NCBI GenBank assembly: GCA_964016885.1
Contig: OZ024746.1
Span: forward strand, 62,124,001-62,188,000
DNA length: 64,000 bases
Source of the DNA: Eledone cirrhosa
Lineage: Eukaryota
Direction of reading: 5' to 3'
Positions 4,481 to 57,565 of this stretch are shown here, in pieces (the stretch's first letter is position 1; every line of letters starts with the position of its first letter). Under the pieces are notes generated by a model. It was given only the letters and a program-made list of their open reading frames with translations. It searched no databases and was not told where the DNA came from. The translations under genes were made by a program, and so were the position numbers.

Positions 4481-4665
4481 GTATATGTATATATATATAA
4501 TATATATGTGTGTATGTATATATGTATGTGTTTATGCATGCATATATATATGTATGTATGTGTGTATGTATATATATATAAATATATATAATAAATATAT
4601 ATATATATACATATACATATACATATACTGGTAATTATCTCTATTTATAAAACTGTTATATATTG

Positions 4666-4730
4666 TATCTTGTCTGATGAAGGCATACCATAATGTAACT
4701 TGGTATCCTTGAAATATATATAATGAAATA
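4666..4730 (+). ncRNA. Minimal type I hammerhead ribozyme (family H1)
   Basis: tatcttgt-CTGATGA(4674)-aggcatacca...tggtatcctt-GAAA(4711)-tatata-TA-atgaaata; stems I and II pair, stem III self-complementary. Confidence 0.8.
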
Positions 4731-4792
4731 AATATGGTTTTATAAATATAGCTTCCATTTATTAATATCGTATATATATATATATATATATA

Positions 4793-8445: not shown

Positions 8446-8627
8446 TATATAAATATAACAATATATATATATATATATATATGTAGAAGTTATATTTAAT
8501 TTGTTGGGATACAACAAGCAAATATTTATATAACTGATATAAAGCACTCAACAAATTTTTGGAGTAAAAATACAATATATTAACAATATATTATGTCAAT
8601 ATTTGTTTATAAAACTGATCTATATTA

Positions 8628-8692
8628 TATTTTATCTGATGAAAGCGCACCATAATTTGCTTTGGTGTCCTTGAAATATGTATAATGAAATA
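8628..8692 (+). ncRNA. Minimal type I hammerhead ribozyme (family H1), preceded by its own inverted tail 8483-8580
   Basis: CTGATGA 8636, gcacca/tggtgt stem II, GAAA 8673, tatgta-TA, atgaaata. Confidence 0.75.
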
Positions 8693-8751
8693 AATATGGT
8701 TTTATAAATATAGTTTCCATTTGTTAATATATTGTATATATATATATATAT

Positions 8752-8936
8752 GTTTATCCCGGGTTCAATCGGGAGTAACCACAGTAAGCAAGGTACTCAA
8801 TACATAGCAGAGTATAAATATTTAATATAGAAATGGTTTCTACAGGACTAGAACTGTTTCATTCGCGAGAAGTCATTAGGAAGCCCTGATGATTTCTCCC
8901 GAATGAAACAGTCTTGTAGAAGCCATTTCTACATTA
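8752..8936. mobile_element. Fold-back PLE-like family H3 with hammerhead core
   Basis: Inverted arms around aggaagccct; ctgatga-tttc tccc gaat-gaaacag. Homologues at 26646-26810 and 56588-56782; tail fragment ~7595-7620. Confidence 0.75.
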
Positions 8937-9242
8937 TATATACATATATATGTGTTTGTGTGTGTGTGTGTACAGTCAACTCTCTCTTACACACTCACAC
9001 ACACAAGTATCTATACTCACACATACGCAATGCTTCTGTCCCATTTGCTATCATCTAAACATATGTGCTAAAATTGTTCTTTCCGCCTAACCTTATTTTC
9101 TACTTCTCTCCTTTCTTTCATTTGTTCTCAATCTATCTGTTTCGATGAAGCACTTATTCCGAAACGTCAAGAATATTTGCTGCTAACACAACGAAAGAAT
9201 ATATGATGTTCACAATATCACTATGGATTTGAGAATGTTTAC

Positions 9243-16213: not shown

Positions 16214-16390
16214 ATAGGAAAAGAGTCAGGACTCCGACGGCTGAGCTCCGGCCGTTTCGACAGCTAGATTTGGATCTAGCTGTCGAAACGGCCGGAGTCC
16301 TGACTTTTTCCTATTACCCACTCTACTACCTTAAGTATTGAGTACTCTGGTGCATTATGGTCCACCTGCTATCCTACTATACTCTCTTTG

Positions 16391-17143: not shown

Positions 17144-17415
17144 TATAAAGAAAAAGAGATGAAATCGAAAATGCAACTGAAGTCTTATTTTTTTTTTAAA
17201 TATATATATTTATTTGGTTCCTTTACCGGTTTCGCAGTTCTTCTGCTTTTCAAAAGGTGAGTTGAGATGGAGGGTCTGTGGTTTTTCTCACATCTCAACT
17301 CACCTTTTGAAAAGCAGAAGAACTGCGAAACCGGTAAAGGAAACAAATAAATATATATATTTTTTTTAAAAATAAGACTCCAGTTGCATTTTCGATTTCA
17401 TCTCTTTTTCTTTAT
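17144..17415. mobile_element. Fold-back PLE-like insertion with a variant hammerhead in each arm
   Basis: ~125-bp inverted arms around spacer ~17270-17290. Confidence 0.8.
17303..17340 (+). ncRNA. Hammerhead-like motif with variant core UUGAAAA
   Basis: cctt-TTGAAAA-gcag aagaa ctgc-GAAA-ccgg-TA-aagg; mirror copy ~17220-17257 on minus. Confidence 0.65.
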
Positions 17416-19024: not shown

Positions 19025-19125
19025 CGCGTATATGTGTGTACAAAAAGTAAACAGAAACAACAAAGCAAACAACACAGTACAATGAAGAAATATATTAGTT
19101 TAACGCTTGATATAGTAGGAAAGGT

Positions 19126-19163
19126 ATATTTACATTTCGGACACTAGTCCTTCATCAAAAGAT
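19126..19163 (-). ncRNA. Degenerate minimal hammerhead
   Basis: Minus: atctt-TTGATGA-a ggac tagt gtcc-GAAA-tg-TA-aatat; tail related to 111-300. Confidence 0.6.
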
Positions 19164-19255
19164 GGAATGATAAATAAAAGATGAAATAGAAAGATAGAGT
19201 GAAAAGATGTTTTATTTCAGAAAATAACCACTTGTGTGTTCAGTCACCCATATAT

Positions 19256-19822
19256 ATATATCAACTAGAAATTGATTGACATATATATCTAAAATAAACA
19301 TATGAAACAATCACAGGGAATAATTTGTAAAGTGTGTAAGCACACACAGCTAGGTAGGTAACTAATTAAAGTTTAATGAGAACTTCAAATATAGATACCT
19401 TTTAAAATGATTAATCTTCCTTGTATATATTTCAAATATATTTCTTTAATGAAATATATTTGAAATATATACAAGGAAGATTAATCATTTTAAAAGGTAT
19501 CTATATTTGAAGTTCTCGTTATACTTTAAATAGCTAGGTAGGTAACTAATTAAAGTATAACCAGAACTTCAAATATAGATACCTTTTAAAATGATTAATC
19601 TTCCTTGTATATATTTCAAATATATTTCATTAAAGAAATATATTTGAAATATATACAAGGAAGATTAATCATTTTAAAAGGTATCTATATTTGAAGTTCT
19701 CGTTAAACTTTAATTAGTTACCTACCTAGCTATGTGTGCTTACACACTTTACAAATTATTCCCTGTGATTGTTTCATATGTTTATTTTAGATATATATGT
19801 CAATCTATTTCTAGTTGATATA
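19256..19822. mobile_element. Double (nested) fold-back with flip/flop loops
   Basis: Apex loops tttaat (19445-19450) and attaaa (19629-19634) are reverse complements; each is followed by ttt-GAAA-tata-TA-caagg. Confidence 0.85.
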
Positions 19823-19930
19823 AAATGCTCGGATCTATGCATTGGAATCTTTGAGTATATTCTACAGTGGATATGGCGCATGTCTCTCGGACATGACACC
19901 CTTAATTTAATTTTGTATATATATATATAT

Positions 19931-20052
19931 AAATAACAAAGAGCGTATGGTAAGATACCAGGTGGACTATAACGCACCAGAGTACTCAATACTTAGGGTA
20001 GTAGAGTGGGTAATAGGAAAAAAGTCAGGACCCAGATGGCTGAGCTCTGGCC

Positions 20053-20057
<5 letters not shown>
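19931..20057 (-). mobile_element. Family H2 fragment, 5'-truncated at the hammerhead (G)AAA
   Basis: Minus strand starts aaacggccagagctcagccatc directly after (TA)n. Confidence 0.7.
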
Positions 20058-21046: not shown

Positions 21047-21153
21047 AAAGAATAGAGGTGTATATATATATATATACAGTTAAAAGAATAGAGGTGTATA
21101 TATCGAGGGAGGGGGGGTTGAGAGATAAGTGTATAATCGGGGTCTTACTGGTT

Positions 21154-21484
<331 letters not shown>

Positions 21485-21894: not shown

Positions 21895-22381
<487 letters not shown>

Positions 22382-26647: not shown

Positions 26648-26802
26648 GTTTATCCCGGGTTCAATCGGAGGTATAACAGAGTATAAATATTTAATATAGA
26701 AATGGCTTCTACAGGACTAGAACTGTTTCATTCGGCAGAAATCATCAGGGCTTCCTGATTGTTTCTCCCGAATGAAACAGATCTAGTCCTGTAGAAGCCA
26801 TT

Positions 26803-26810
<8 letters not shown>
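26646..26810. mobile_element. Fold-back family H3
   Basis: Apex tcatcaggg-ctt-cctgat; minus arm reads ctgatga-tttc tgcc gaat-gaaacag. Confidence 0.75.
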
Positions 26811-26864
<54 letters not shown>

Positions 26865-28563: not shown

Positions 28564-28989
28564 TGGGGCAGGGGAGACACAAAGCAGGCTTTGTTTATAA
28601 ACGGCTAGCGAATTTGAAAATTAGGTAGTAACATGTGCTTACGCCGTATTTGACTACATAGAATTAGTCTGTTAGTTGGGATTTAAAAAATCCTCTGAAT
28701 GGAAAAAAGGATAAGTATTGACGTGCATGGGACACGAACCCATATCTTCGGCTTCTAATTGAATGGAAGGAAGCATGGGTGGCTCGTTGGTGTAATGGTA
28801 ACACATTGGTCCGGCAAACCAAAGATGTAGGTTCGTGTCCCATGCACGTCAATACCCATCCTTTCTTCCATTCAGAGGATTTTTAAAAAATACCAACTAA
28901 CAGACTAATTCTATTTTGTCAAATACGGCGTAAGCACATGTTACTACCTAATTTTCAAATTCGCTAGCTGTTTGTAAATAAAGCCTGCT
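28564..28989 (+). mobile_element. tRNA-headed element with inverted duplication
   Basis: Inverted arms 28583-28751 and ~28819-28989 with scattered mismatches, tRNA-like head between them. Confidence 0.75.
28781..28851 (+). pseudogene. tRNA-like sequence (SINE head or tRNA pseudogene)
   Basis: A box tggtgtaatgg, anticodon arm ttggt-ccggcaa-accaa, B box ggttcgtgtcc; acceptor stem mismatched. Confidence 0.65.
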
Positions 28990-29906: not shown

Positions 29907-30297
29907 AAAGTTCTATTTAAAATTGTTGGGATACAACAAGTAAATATTTTTATAACTGATATAAAGCACTCGACAAGTATTTGGAGTAGATATACGATAT
30001 TAATAAATGGAAACTATATTTATAAAACCATATTTATTTCATTATACATATTTCAGGGATACCACATTAAATTATGGTATGCCTTCAACAGACAAAATAC
30101 AATATATAACAGTTTTACAAATAAGCTTTGACGTACCCTTTTAAAATGCAACCATTATTTTTGGAAGCCATCCGGATAGCTATATATATATTGTATTTTG
30201 TCTGATGAAGGCATACCATAATTTAATTTGGTATCCCTGAAATATGTATAATGAAATAAATATGGTTTTATAAATATAGTTTCCATTTATTAATATC

Positions 30298-30298
<1 letters not shown>
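29905..30298. mobile_element. Family H1 inverted pair with two hammerheads
   Basis: Minus copy (core CTGTTGA, ~30035-30099, with tail) and plus copy (CTGATGA 30202, GAAA 30239). Confidence 0.82.
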
Positions 30299-30381
<83 letters not shown>

Positions 30382-33291: not shown

Positions 33292-36200
33292 GCTGTTGTA
33301 GTACTGGTTGTTATTGCTGTTGTTGTAGTGGTTGTTATTGCTGTTGTTGTAGTTGCTGTTGTTGTAGTGGTTGTTATTGCTGTTGTTGTTATTGCTGTTG
33401 TTGTAGTGGTTGTTATTGCTGTTGTTGTAGTTGCTGTTGTTGTAGTGGTTGTTATTGCTGTTGTTGTTATTGCTGTTGTTGTAGTGGTTGTTATTGCTGT
33501 TGTTGTAGTTGCTGTTGTTGTAGTGGTTGTTATTGCTGTTGTTGTTATTGCTGTTGTTGTAGTGGTTGTTATTGCTATTGTTGTAGTTGCTGTTGTAGTA
33601 GTGGTTGTTATTGCTGTTGTTGTAGTTGCTGTTGTTGTAGTGGTTGTTATTGCTGTTGTTGTTATTGCTGTTGTTGTAGTGGTTGTTATTGCTGTTGTTG
33701 TAGTTGCTGTTGTAGTACTGGTTTTTATTGCTGTTGTTGTAGTTGCTGTTGTAGTAGTGGTTGTTATTGCTGTTGTTGTAGTTGCTGTTGTAGTAGTGGT
33801 TGTTATTGCTGTTGTTGTAGTTGCTGTTGTAGTAGTGGTTGTTATTGCTGTTGTTGTAGTTGCTGTTGTTGTAGTGGTTGTTATTGCTGTTGTTGTAGTT
33901 GCTGTTGTAGTACTGGTTGTTATTGCTGTTGTTGTAGTTGCTGTTGTTGTAGTGGTTGTTATTGCTGTTGTTGCTATTGCTGTTGTTGTATGGTTGTTAT
34001 TGCTGTTGTTGTAGTTGCTGTTGTAGTACTGGTTGTTATTGCTGTTGTTGTAGTTGCTGTTGTAGTACTGGTTGTTATTGCTGTTGTTGTAGTTGCTGTT
34101 GTTGTACTGGTTGTTATTGCTGTTGTTGTAGTGGTTGTTGTAGTACTGGTTGTTATTGCTATTGTTGTAGTTGCTGTTGTAGTACTGGTTGTTATTGCTG
34201 TTGTTGTAGTTGCTGTTGTAGTACTGGTTGTTATTGCTGTTGTTGTAGTTGCTGTTGTTGTAGTGGTTGTTATTGCTGTTGTTGTAGTTGCTGTTGTTGT
34301 AGTTGCTGTTGTAGTACTGGTTGTTATTGCTGTTGTTGTAGTTGCTGTTGTAGTAGTGGTTGTTATTGCTGTTGTTGTAGTTGCTGTTGTTGTAGTGGTT
34401 GTTATTGCTGTTGTTGTAGTTGCTGTTGTAGTAGTGGTTGTTATTGCTGTTGTTGTAGTTGCTGTTGCTGTAGGTGGTTGTTATTGCTGTTGTTGTAGTT
34501 GCTGATGTTGTAGTGGTTGTTATTGCTGTTGTTGTTGTTGCTGTTTTTGTAGTGGTTGTTATTGCTGTTGTTGTAGTTGCTGTTGTAGTAGTGGTTGTTA
34601 TTGCTGTTGTTGTAGTTGCTGTTGCTGTAGGTGGTTGTTATTGCTGTTGTTGTAGTTGCTGTTGTGTGTAGTGGTTGTTATTGCTGTTGTTGTTGTTGCT
34701 GTTGTTGTAGTGGTTGTTATTGCTGTTGTTGTAGTTGCTGTTGTTGTAGTTGCTGTTGTAGTACTGGTTGTTATTGCTGTTGTTGTAGTTGCTGTTGTAG
34801 TAGTGGTTGTTATTGCTGTTGTTGTTGTTGCCGTTGTTGTAGTTGCTGTTGTAGTACTGGTTGTTATTGCTGTTGTTGTAGTTGCTGTTGTAGTAGTGGT
34901 TGTTATTGCTGTTGTTGTAGTTGCTGTTGTAGTACTGGTTGTTATTGCTGTTGTTGTAGTTGCTGTTGTAGTAGTGGTTGTTATTGCTGTTGTTGTAGTA
35001 GTTATTGTTATTGGTGTTGTTGTAGTTGCTGTTGTTGTAGTGGTTGTTATTGCTGTTGTTGTAGTGGTTGTTATTGCTGTTGTTGTAGTTGCTGTTGCTG
35101 TAGGTGGTTGTTATTGCTGTTGTTGTAGTTGCTGTTGTTGTAGTGGTTGTTATTGCTGTTGTTGTAGTTGCTGTTGCTGTAGGTGGTTGTTATTGCTGTT
35201 GTTGTAGTTGCTGTTGTTGTAGTGGTTGTTATTGCTGTTGTTGTTGTTGCTGTTGTTGTAGTGGTTGTTATTGCTGTTGTTGTAGTTGCTGTTGTTGTAG
35301 TGGTTGTTATTGCTGTTGTTGTAGTTGCTGTTGATGTAGTGGTTGTTATTGCTGTTGTTGTAATGGTTGTTATTGCTGTTGTTGTAGTTGCTGTTGTAGT
35401 ACTGGTTGTTATTGCTGTTGTTGTAATTGCTGTTGTTGTAGTGGTAGTTATTGCTGTTGTTGTAGTTGCTGTTGTTGTAGTTGCTGTTGTTGTAGTGGTT
35501 GTTATTGCTGTTGTTGTAGTTGCTGTTGTAGTACTGGTTGTTATTGCTGTTGTTGTAGTTGCTGTTGTTGTAGTGGTTGTTATTGCTGTTGTTGTAGTTG
35601 CTGTTGTTGTAGTGGTTGTTATTGCTGTTGTTGTTGTTGCTGTTGTTGTAGTGGTTGTTATTGCTGTTGTTGTAGTTGCTGTTGCTGTAGTGGTTGTAAT
35701 TGCTGTTGTTGTTGTTGTTGCTGTTGTTGTAGTGGTTGTTATTGCTGTTGTTGTAGTTGCTGTTGTAGTACTGGTTGTTATTGCTGTTGTTGTAGTGGTT
35801 GTTATTGCTGTTGTTGTTGTTGCTGTTGTTGTAGTGGTTGTTATTGCTGTTGTTGTAGTTGCTGTTGTTGTAGTGGTTGTTATTGCTGTTGTTGTAGTTG
35901 CTGTTGTTGTAGTGGTTGTTATTGCTGTTGTTGTAGTTGCTGTTGTTGTAGTGGTTGTTATTGCTGTTGTTGTAGTTGCTGTTGTAGTAGAGATTGTTAT
36001 TGCTGTTGTTGTAGTTGCTGTTGTTGTAGTGGTTGTTATTGCTGTTGTTGTTGTTGCTGTTGTTGTAGTTGCTGTTGCTGTAGTGGTTGTTATTGCTGTT
36101 GTTGTAGTTGCTGTTGTAGTAGTGGTTGTTATTGCTGTTGTTGTAGTTGCTGTTGTTGTAGTGGTTGTTATTGCTGTTGTTGTAGTTGCTGTTGTAGTAG

Positions 36201-38325
36201 TGGTTGTTATTGCTGTTGTTGTAGTTGCTGTTGTAGTAGTGGTTGTTATTGCTGTTGTTGTAGTTGCTGTTGTTGTAGTGGTTGTTATTGCTGTTGTTGT
36301 AGTTGCTGTTGTAGTAGTGGTTGTTATTGCTGTTGTTGTAGTTGCTGTTGTAGTAGTGGTTGTTATTGCTGTTGTTGTAGTTGCTGTTGTTGTAGTGGTT
36401 GTTATTGCTGTTGTTGTAGTTGCTGTTGTAGTAGTGGTTGTTATTGCTGTTGTTGTAGTTGCTGTTGTAGTAGTGGTTGTTATTGCTGTTGTTGTAGTTG
36501 CTGTTGTTGTAGTGGTTGTTATTGCTGTTGTTGTAGTTGTTGTTGTTGTAGTGGTTGTTATTGCTGTTGTTGTAGTTGCTGTTGTAGTAGTGGTTGTTAT
36601 TGCTGTTGTTGTAGTTGCTGTTGTTGTAGTGGTTGTTATTGCTGTTGTTGTAGTTGCTGTTGTAGTAGTGGTTGTTATTGCTGTTGTTGTAGTTGCTGTT
36701 GTAGTAGTGGTTGTTATTGCTGTTGTTGTAGTTGCTGATGTTGTAGTGGTTGTTATTGCTGTTGTTGTAGTTGCTGTTGTTGTAGTGGTTGTTATTGCTG
36801 TTGTTGTAGTTGCTGTTGTTGTAGTGGTTGTTATTGCTGTTGTTGTAGTTGCTGTTGTTGTAGTGGTTGTTATTGCTGTTGGTGTAGTTGCTGTTGTTGT
36901 AGTGGTTGTTATTGCTGTTGTTGTAGTGGTTGTTATTGCTGTTGTTGTAGTTGCTGTTGTTGTAGTGGTTGTTATTGCTGTTGTTGTAGTGGTTGTTATT
37001 GCTGTTGTTGTAGTTGCTGTTGTTGTAGTGGTTGTTATTGCTGTTGTTGTAGTTGTTGTTGTAGTAGTGGTTGTTATTGCTGTTGTTGTAGTTGTTGTTG
37101 TAGTAGTGGTTGTTATTGCTGTTGTTGTAGTTGTTGTTGTAGTAGTGGTTGTTATTGCTGTTGTTGTAGTTGCTGTTGTAGTAGTGGTTGTTATTGCTGT
37201 TGTTGTAGTTGCTGTTGTTGTAGTGGTTGTTATTGCTGTTGTTGTAGTAGTGGTTGTTATTGCTGTTGTTGTAGTTGCTGTTGTAGTAGTGGTTCTTATT
37301 GCTGTTGTTGTAGTTGCTGTTGTTGTAGTGGTTGTTATTGCTGTTGTTGTAGTTGCTGTAGTAGTAGTGGTTGTTATTGCTGTTGTTGTAGTTGCTGTTG
37401 TATTAGTGGTTGTTATTGCTGTTGTTGTAGTTGTTGTTGTAGTAGTGGTTGTTATTGCTGTTGTTGTAGTTGCTGTTGTAGTAGTGGTTGTTATTGCTGT
37501 TGTTGTAGTTGCTGTTGTTGTAGTGGTTGTTATTGCTGTTGTTGTAGTTGCTGTTGTTGTAGTGGTTGTTATTGCTGTTGTTGTAGTTGCTGTTGTAGTA
37601 GTGGTTGTTATTGCTGTTGTTGTAGTTGTTGTTGTAGTAGTGGTTGTTATTGCTGTTGTTGTAGTTGCTGTTGTAGTAGTGGTTGTTATTGCTGTTGTTG
37701 TAGTTGCTGTTGTAGTAGTGGTTGTTATTGCTGTTGGTGTAGTTGCTGTTGTAGTAGTGGTTGTTATTGCTGTTGTTGTAGTTGCTGTTGTAGTAGTGGT
37801 TGTTATTGCTATTGTTGTAGTTGCTGTTGTAGTAGTGGTTGTTATTGCTGTTGGTGTAGTTGCTGTTGTAGTAGTGGTTGTTATTGCTATTGTTGTAGTT
37901 GCTGTTGTAGTAGTGGTTGTTATTGCTGTTGTTGTAGTTGCTGTTGTAGTAGTGGTTGTTATTGCTGTTGGTGTAGTTGCTGTTGTAGTAGTGGTTGTTA
38001 TTGCTGTTGTTGTAGTTGCTGTTGTAGTAGTGGTTGTTATTGCTGTTGTTGTAGTTGCTGTTGTTGTAGTGGTTGTTATTGCTATTGTTGTAGTTGCTGT
38101 TGTAGTAGTGGTTGTTATTGCTGTTGGTGTAGTTGCTGTTGTAGTAGTGGTTGTTATTGCTGTTGTTGTAGTTGCTGTTGTTGTAGTGGTTGTTATTGCT
38201 ATTGTTGTAGTTGCTGTTGTAGTAGCACTTGTTATTGCTGTTGTTGTAATTGCTGTTGTAGTAGTAGTTATTGTTATTGGTGTTGTTGTTGCTGTTGTAG
38301 TAGTGGTTGTTATTGCTGATGTTGG
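33292..38325. repeat. ~5-kb minisatellite, 39-bp unit gttgttattgctgttgttgtagttgctgttgttgtagtg
   Basis: 13-codon periodicity in the ORF track (VVIAVVVVAVVVV / AITTTTTTATTTT). Confidence 0.95.
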
Positions 38326-54863: not shown

Positions 54864-55093
54864 ATTGACACGTGTGTCTACTGGGATTAGTGTACACGGT
54901 GATTATTAATCCTAATCTAGTAACGTCAGTTAGTGATGTTAGGTTTTGCAGCAGAAAATTGCTTCAAGTCGAATAGTTAATGGTTGAACACAAATAGTGG
55001 GTGGACTGACTATTGGAGGGGGCGGAGTTATAGAAGTAGAAAATGGGAGGAGTTTGCAAAGGAGGTGGAGTTGAACGTAGGAGGTACGGCTAG

Positions 55094-55118
55094 AGTCTAG
55101 AATAGCGTTATGTTGTGA

Positions 55119-55156
<38 letters not shown>

Positions 55157-55176
55157 TCACAACATAACGCTATTCT

Positions 55177-55214
<38 letters not shown>

Positions 55215-55234
55215 TCACAACATAACGCTATTCT

Positions 55235-55272
<38 letters not shown>

Positions 55273-55292
55273 TCACAACATAACGCTATTCT

Positions 55293-55330
<38 letters not shown>

Positions 55331-55350
55331 TCACAACATAACGCTATTCT

Positions 55351-55355
<5 letters not shown>
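55094..55355. repeat. Inverted then 58-bp-period tandem copies of an element end in (TA)n
   Basis: aatatattcacaacataacgctattctagac at 55150, 55208, 55266, 55324; reverse complement at 55095-55125; further copy ~55642. Confidence 0.9.
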
Positions 55356-55387
<32 letters not shown>

Positions 55388-55427
55388 AAATGAAAATCCG
55401 AAGGCAAGGTAAAATTCCAATCATTTA

Positions 55428-55502
55428 ATCACGAGACATGTTTCAATAAGAGATAGATCGATTGTGAAGCCATGATCGATTATCACTGATCTCATCGGGT
55501 GA
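55428..55502 (-). ncRNA. Degenerate hammerhead candidate
   Basis: Minus: tcac-CCGATGA-long stem II-GAAA-catg-TC-tcgtga; stem I register uncertain. Confidence 0.5.
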
Positions 55503-55572
55503 AAATGAATTGTCTTCAAATTCTTGATACGAGGGAGAAAAAATAACGATGTTCTCTCACAGAATTCATTCC

Positions 55573-55620
<48 letters not shown>

Positions 55621-55950
55621 AATTATATATATATAATTTGTAATATATTCACAACATAACGCTATTCTAGAATCTAGCCGTATATATACACATACTAGCC
55701 GTATATATACACATATATATATATATATATTGATATATACAATATACACATATATAATATATATACATATGAGTATATGCGTGGATCATTGCATGTAGAT
55801 ATGTGTGCATGCTATTGCGTGTGTGTGTGTGATTATATGTGTCCGTATATTTGTAAGCATGTATATACGTTTGTGTGTGCGTGTCTGTGACTGTAAGTGT
55901 GTGAGAAAGAAAACAAAATGAATAGGTGTAATTACACACACACGCACGTG

Positions 55951-56587: not shown

Positions 56588-56782
56588 GTTATTCCGGGTT
56601 GAATCGGAGGTAACCACAGTAAGTAAGGTACTCAATACATAGCAGAGTATAAAAGTTTTAATATAGATGAGATTCTACAGGACTAGAACTGTTTCATTCT
56701 TTAGAAATCATCAGGATTCCTGATGATTTCTAAAGAATGAAACAATTCTAGTCCTGTAGAATCTCATCTATATTAAAACTTA
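56588..56782. mobile_element. Fold-back family H3
   Basis: Palindrome centred on tcatcagga-t-tcctgatga (~56718); core ctgatga-tttc taaa gaat-gaaac on both strands. Confidence 0.8.
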
Positions 56783-56790
56783 TATACATA

Positions 56791-57334: not shown

Positions 57335-57565
57335 ATAGAAGGGAAAACGAAAAATCAGTGATGCATCGGAACTCAATTTATTGCGTGTTACAATTGTTTC
57401 TTCGGAGCATATCCTCTTTCAGAAAGAGGATATGCTCCGAAATCAACAGACGTGTCCGAGGAACCACACACAGATCGCACCTCGAGCTGTTCGCCGTGGA
57501 AACAATTGTAACACGCAATAAATTGAGTTCCGATGCATCACTGATTTTTCGTTTTCCATTTTATA
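57335..57565 (+). mobile_element. Fold-back family H6 with inner hairpin 57400-57440
   Basis: Left arm stops at the reverse complement of GAAAC. Confidence 0.8.
57451..57515 (+). ncRNA. Hammerhead, family H6 (core CCGAGGA)
   Basis: cgtgt-CCGAGGA-...-GAAA(57499)-caattg-TA-acacg-c-AATAAA. Confidence 0.7.

Follow-up and report, generated by a model that had tools for sequence, protein, structure and literature searches.

A nested palindrome with two mirrored hairpin loops in a probable Penelope-like insertion of Eledone cirrhosa

Penelope-like retroelements leave insertions of a recognizable shape, in which an inverted and truncated pLTR is joined to the element through a palindrome and a tail occurs on one side only, and self-priming has been proposed as the origin of this arrangement (PMC3846280). 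The same combination of inverted pLTRs, junction palindromes and one-sided tails was described in PMC8557442, the available text of which treats the building of these inverted ends as an open question. Two reverse-transcription start sites bound the tail and the targets are AT-rich (PMC11167929); published tails measure 30–40 bp. The minimal hammerheads of Penelope elements possess a small palindromic stem III, include a U3-A8 variant and occur as opposite-strand pairs 100–700 bp apart (PMC4209133). Outside the retroelements, mention is made of rolling-hairpin replication and of flip-and-flop telomeres (PMC9415595). In the main text of open-licence papers, no report was found of a Penelope insertion with a nested double fold-back and both loop orientations, and supplementary consensus files may hold some. 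Head-to-head Penelope stumps are already published, and the locus described here is a single-locus variant of that known structure, a curiosity inside an established class rather than a system of a new kind. Its nested copy nevertheless carries strand-diagnostic letters, from which the turning strand and the sequence of the turns can be read, and provides a signature that can be counted genome-wide.

The locus lies in a stretch of 64,000 nucleotides (hereafter the window) from Eledone cirrhosa, at positions 19257–19822. It is a nested palindrome of 566 bases in which two hairpin loops mirror each other. A double fold-back with reverse-complementary loops had been proposed here in a first-pass annotation made from the sequence, and inverted-repeat and exact-match mapping bear this out. 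The outer inverted repeat pairs 19257–19536 with 19543–19822 (280 nt, 98% identity). Inside it, exact matches place one hairpin around 19447.5 with the loop TTTAAT (19445–19450) and another around 19631.5 with the loop ATTAAA (19629–19634), both given on the plus strand; the two loops are reverse complements and differ at only two of six positions (T-TTAA-T and A-TTAA-A). The annotated span holds for the palindrome, whereas the element itself continues to 19915 as a 93-nt tail on the plus strand (19823–19915), which belongs to the same repeat family and is present on the right side only (0 nt on the left).

Exact-match mapping and a four-way register show that the element consists of four copies of a single sequence in alternating orientation, with lengths of 188, 79, 99 and 281 nt. 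From left to right these are the outer antisense arm a1 (19257–19444, minus strand, 188 nt, tail-less), the inner sense arm s1 (19451–19529, plus strand, 79 nt), the inner antisense arm a2 (19530–19628, minus strand, 99 nt) and the outer sense arm s2 (19635–19822, plus strand, 188 nt), which runs on into the tail. One substitution confined to the inner arms lies at 19522 in s1 and at 19557 in a2. The outer arms that truly pair are 19257–19529 and 19550–19822, with four mismatches in 273 nt. Because s1 ends after 79 nt while a2 has 99 nt, the palindrome centre is a one-sided spacer of 20 nt (19530–19549) belonging to a2; it is asymmetric and forms no third clean hairpin. The spacer carries a weak inverted repeat of 5 of 6 bp (19531–19536/19543–19548) and is the likely site of a second fold-back on the bottom strand. 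The predicted central fold there has an energy of 0 kcal/mol and ranks 104th among 247 possible 3′ ends, and on this rank a preferred hairpin was rejected as the reason for the second site. As a whole, the palindrome has a DNA folding energy of −281.7 kcal/mol (z −55.9), and none of 100 shuffled sequences was equally stable.

An extra segment of 11 nt at 19635–19645 (plus strand), found also at 19451–19461, 19434–19444 and 19618–19628, perfects the hairpins. Because of this duplication, which is absent in relatives, the motif GAAA-TATA-TA is present twice per arm. The first-pass annotation had each loop preceding GAAA-UAUA-UA; the motif does fit the 3′ portion of a hammerhead of Penelope type, and of the two copies in the arm it is the second, at 19646, that is hammerhead-like. 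This putative minimal hammerhead 3′ half occupies 19646–19655 (plus strand) with a predicted cut at 19655/19656, and further copies of the motif start at 19462 (plus strand) and at 19433 and 19617 (both minus strand).

The ends of the element resemble those of EN+ Penelope-like insertion units. An inverted, 5′-truncated copy stands in head-to-head arrangement and a palindrome occupies the junction, with the tail at one end, as described in PMC3846280, PMC8557442 and PMC11167929. The AT-rich or (TA)n target, a hammerhead-like motif beside the junction and many dispersed copies are further points of likeness to the units in these sources. On the left, an (AT)6 run (19250–19261) overlaps the arm end by 5 nt, and a (TA)8 run (19916–19931) follows the tail on the right; inside such (TA)n flanks a target-site duplication is not discernible. 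Unlike the published units, as far as the available text of these papers describes them, the element turns around twice more and shows its loop in either orientation, its tail measures 93 nt against 30–40 bp, and the locus holds no ORF and no complete hammerhead. The end signature, with a microsatellite on one side and an extension of 36–93 nt on the other, recurred in 13 of 16 head-to-head palindromes of the window, a hand-picked, non-microsatellite set, and this one is among the 13. The window is rich in microsatellites (153 tandem-repeat rows), and 2.9% of random positions lie within 6 nt of one.

No ORF of at least 90 aa overlaps 19257–19915. A stump of such an element is not expected to hold an ORF. 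Of the 152 ORFs listed in the window 39 were scanned, and none reached a Pfam cut-off; three sub-threshold matches were ignored. Since neither of the enzymes looked for in an EN+ Penelope-like element or its family, a telomerase-like reverse transcriptase and a GIY-YIG endonuclease, was found, the assignment is made by anatomy, from the ends and the neighbours, and on this basis the element is very probably Penelope-like, with no clade assigned. The insertion is likely dead and non-coding, and no function is expected of it.

In addition to its ends, the element retains a candidate ribozyme remnant. Eight full hammerhead matches occur in the window, six of them in head-to-head palindromes, and each of 20 shuffles gave 0–1, with a descriptor that had been broadened after a U3-A8 variant had been seen. 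The complete hammerhead of a neighbour at 17307–17336 combines GAAA-CCGG-TA with a U3-A8 core. The element keeps the putative 3′ half only, namely GAAA, a palindromic stem III and UH at 19646–19655. In this it is like the metazoan Penelope minimal hammerheads, in which GAAA and UA enclose a short palindromic stem III, and it is unlike them, as they appear in the available text of PMC4209133, in that the core, stem II and a partner for stem I are not seen. Neither CUGANGA nor a U3-A8 core was found in 19250–19930 on either strand, and Rfam gave zero hammerhead matches in the window at the gathering score, the only match being a tRNA-like one elsewhere. By a post hoc test the half-hammerhead motif arose in 61 of 2,000 shuffles, in four of these 2,000 within the first 20 nt, and 38 such motifs occur in the window, so that taken by itself the half-site is weak evidence. 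A retrozyme preprint (10.64898/2026.07.22.740005) held, in its available part, nothing specific to the element.

Relatives of the element were sought in four of ten listed sequencing runs, aligned to 19030–19900 at 85% likeness; upstream of GAAA, the sequence read in relatives comprised 17 nt. Run X1, not established as coming from the species of the window, contributed 11,376 contigs aligning to this stretch, which includes a neighbouring element too. Its summed depth, which is not a copy number, reached about 1e5 over the arms and the tail and 55 in the unique flank at 19210–19239, and the family-level depth carries on through the tail to 19900. The element belongs to a very abundant, dispersed, multi-copy repeat family. 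At the tail-less end, 42 contigs of X1 and two of X6 among the matches listed enter TA repeats before 19250, which indicates a family-level stop there. A second copy of the element within the window was not found by BLAST, and a pattern scan of genome contigs for the element gave no matches. The sole metagenome-contig match was attributed to chance, with about 20–24 nt shared and unrelated flanks.

Beside the loops, the depth of X1 drops to 23–26 (19452 and 19604–19609) and to 220 (19627). The 11-nt segment is missing in 61 of 75 reads of run X8, which have seven different starts and come from reduced-representation data with few loci, and in the sole X6 contig there, and in none of a depth of 23.1 in X1. 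A contig of run X5 (19394–19620) shows the un-duplicated form, with sequence that has diverged just downstream of the core. From these relatives without the duplication it follows that TTTAAT is the native sense sequence immediately 5′ of GAAA, and that the other loop is the inverted copy. One X1 contig among the matches listed reverses exactly at the predicted hammerhead cut (19604 to 19659), a single case that bears on self-cleavage of the putative hammerhead and is suggestive only. Joints of X8 reads on opposite strands (19558–19560 to 19706–19707) were considered as fold-backs and were read instead as indel-bearing family reads split between copies.

None of the contigs or reads among the matches listed spans the whole structure. 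This would suit an assembly or library artefact, in which a fold-back chimeric read or an amplification chimera doubled a single hairpin, and palindromes are known to be difficult to assemble (PMC8557442). The four copies, in the four-way register, vary at five columns, all of them substitutions with zero indels, whereas a chimera would leave near-identical copies. These substitutions indicate that the locus is real and slightly aged, and the artefact is a very improbable explanation. Columns 67, 68, 98 and 172 are either private to one copy or separate the outer arms only, and two of them fall at the sole CpG. A homogenization of the hairpin stems, considered for the lack of private changes there, is unneeded, since two of the four private changes lie at this CpG outside the stems.

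The relation between the two hairpins is resolved by the same letters. Over the same 184 nt, hairpin 2 differs from hairpin 1 at three positions when inverted and at seven when read directly, and four of the seven (19373, 19445, 19450 and 19522) fall precisely where an inversion would put them. Hairpin 2 thus repeats hairpin 1 in inverted and not in direct orientation. A direct tandem duplication of the 184-nt unit through slippage or unequal crossing-over agrees with the output of TRF (period 184, 2.0 copies, 96%), but it would need four coordinated substitutions and its probability is close to nil. The first-pass annotation is thereby upheld in its view that synthesis across hairpin 1 gave rise to the other loop, in at least two turn-arounds, and a substitution found in the inner arms only points the same way.

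Hairpin termini of viruses were also considered as a model for loops in two orientations. In parvoviruses and poxviruses, an asymmetric hairpin loop that is copied through turns into its reverse complement, and the AT-rich perfect hairpins of the present element, with their reverse-complementary loops, resemble such termini. The likeness is one of geometry only. The element is internal to a chromosome and part of a host repeat family, without viral genes, signs of terminal resolution or repeated rounds, and the flip and flop forms are not diagnostic of a virus, because both result whenever an asymmetric loop is copied in inverted form. The first-pass annotation had inferred a hairpin-ended intermediate, with parvovirus and poxvirus termini as the known example. 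Against the integration of such a terminus, from a DNA replicon with hairpin ends of the parvovirus-, densovirus- or poxvirus-like type, stand the high copy number of the family, its depth decreasing towards the hairpin, the one-sided tail and (TA)n ends of Penelope type, the rarity of the hairpin form within the family and the lack of an ORF of at least 90 aa noted above. Exact patterns of the element gave no match among viral contigs, a collection mostly of prokaryotic viruses. That part of the annotation is not sustained, and such an origin is extremely improbable.

Column 72, one of the five variable columns, separates the outer copies, which have A, from the inner ones, which have T. This T is likely derived, because relatives seldom carry the inner form (at most about 68 of a depth of 1,275 at 19557 in X1) and because 19706 is absent from the best 40 of 215 difference rows. 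At column 67 (19701) the family letter in X1 is A (130,532 of a depth of 132,100, a sum over contigs and not a copy number), while C is found in three of the four copies and G in one; in run X5 A is the minority at this position (32 of 454). That all four copies lack the A of the family points to one shared template.

The reading we prefer, with a probability of about 0.5, is that the element is a fragment from the 3′ end of a Penelope-like retroelement, that it entered a (TA)n run, and that its bottom strand turned back twice in one episode of integration. Reverse transcription of the right cDNA would be primed at the tail end from the right (TA)n and extend to GAAA, while a second, tail-less cDNA would be primed from the left. 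The right cDNA may then have joined the 3′ end of the left cDNA and copied 26 nt, after which it could snap back where TTTAAT is enclosed by a native stem of 9 bp (about −4.3 kcal/mol), giving both the 11-nt extra segment and the perfect hairpin. Self-copying would continue for 99 nt with one error. A second fold-back on the weak 5-of-6-bp repeat would follow, with extension of the mismatched end, and copying back through the loop would produce its reverse complement before the strand re-annealed to the left arm. We assign the central turn to the bottom strand, as it is the only strand where native sequence continues without a break into the spacer and finds a partner to pair with, and the mismatched 3′ base together with a T-G pair would suit a polymerase without proofreading.

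Three arguments favour placing these events at integration. A single episode would account for the perfecting of the hairpin as well as for the second copy, extension from a mismatch fits a non-proofreading enzyme, and a second multi-switch junction occurs at 57401–57441. Nevertheless, the double turn-back at integration is weakened in that it presupposes that the polymerase erred within a stretch of 79 nt, for which rival explanations use ordinary mutation. It is also weakened by a tail longer than those published and an unstable central hairpin, and by the lack of a hammerhead core in 19250–19930 and of a reverse transcriptase or endonuclease among the 39 scanned ORFs. The frequency of the half-hammerhead motif in shuffles and the lack of a spanning read or contig among the matches listed count against it too. 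If the reading is true, the locus would be a fossil of the order of events and the inner-only substitution a dated polymerase error. It would further imply that a Penelope-like reverse transcriptase can perform serial synthesis resembling a rolling hairpin, priming itself, displacing 100–200 nt, priming itself again from a mismatch and copying back through a loop. We put this forward tentatively, at a little less than even odds.

The inner-only substitution needs no polymerase error if it is an ordinary older mutation, as it would be were the second hairpin added later by the host. A single-hairpin Penelope-like insertion would then have come first, and a replication slip, a small inverted triplication, would have followed, in which the growing strand turns back, is extended on its own sequence and rejoins its course via the long palindrome arm. 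The layout A-B-B′-B-C with inverted repeats at both junctions agrees with this, and so do the dimensions, with a spacer of 20 nt, a junction of 5/6 bp and an inverted part of at least 157 nt beside reported medians of 30, 6 and 160 bp (PMC13334657). The element is thus like these triplications and ODIRA-type events in its DUP/INV/DUP order, its spacer, the short inverted repeat at one junction and the similar sizes. It is unlike those in the available text of PMC13334657 in that its other junction is a long retroelement palindrome and that the event is inherited and aged, the published data coming from yeast mutants and cancers. Moreover, a separate earlier event is required to perfect the hairpin with the 11-nt segment in both arms, and extension of a mismatched end would poorly suit a proofreading polymerase. 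An allele with matching flanks, from which such a slip could have started, was not seen among the matches listed. A later host slip of this kind is rather unlikely.

The identical hairpins and the inner/outer site could be accounted for without error in yet another way, if a read-through RNA of a hairpin-bearing palindromic source was inserted head-to-head in a second generation of retrotransposition, so that the central junction would be a normal one. The centre does resemble other junctions of the window, in several of which a spacer of 21–159 nt lies in the longer arm. Such a source finds little counterpart in X1, where the loop-adjacent depth of 23–26, which is not a copy number, compares with about 10–16 for most contigs listed, and no hairpin-bearing sub-family is evident. 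Reverse transcriptase would also have to traverse an RNA hairpin of about 99 bp, and this second-generation insertion appears improbable.

Several other elements of the window share features with the nested palindrome. A head-to-head element at 57335–57564 has arms that end exactly at GAAA, and its spacer opens with a perfect 20-bp hairpin (57401–57441), another multi-switch junction. The palindrome at 17223–17337 carries a complete hammerhead of the U3-A8 variant on both arms. To the left of the locus, the minus strand at 19041–19210 carries part of another high-copy family, one that has a canonical minimal hammerhead; the core of this copy has decayed, and its letter at 19158 differs from 128,167 of a depth of 135,720 in X1, where summed depth is not copy number. 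Two copies of one family (16214–16314 and 21201–21304), with a related partial copy at 19948–20055, turn around inside a putative stem II. The copy at 21201 forms a perfect palindrome, and across a (TA)24 run it has a third inverted piece, a short one, at 21137–21158. One hammerhead-bearing family is represented by four copies (4630–4770, 8606–8730, 22016–22300 and 29987–30306) with differing turn-around points. A tiny family with three members (8818–8941, 26682–26821 and 56647–56787) has back-to-back hammerhead cores and a one-sided tail each, and the turn falls just 5′ of CTGATGA. The palindrome at 28583–28989 is centred on a tRNA-like sequence (28781–28851; Rfam RF00005, 41.4 bits) and may be a tRNA-headed element that owes its insertion to Penelope-like machinery. 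Besides these, a 39-bp tandem array of 128 copies with strong strand skew and long open frames occupies 33307–38324, and a 58-bp unit containing (TA)n is repeated 4.4 times between inverted 40-nt ends at 55085–55680.
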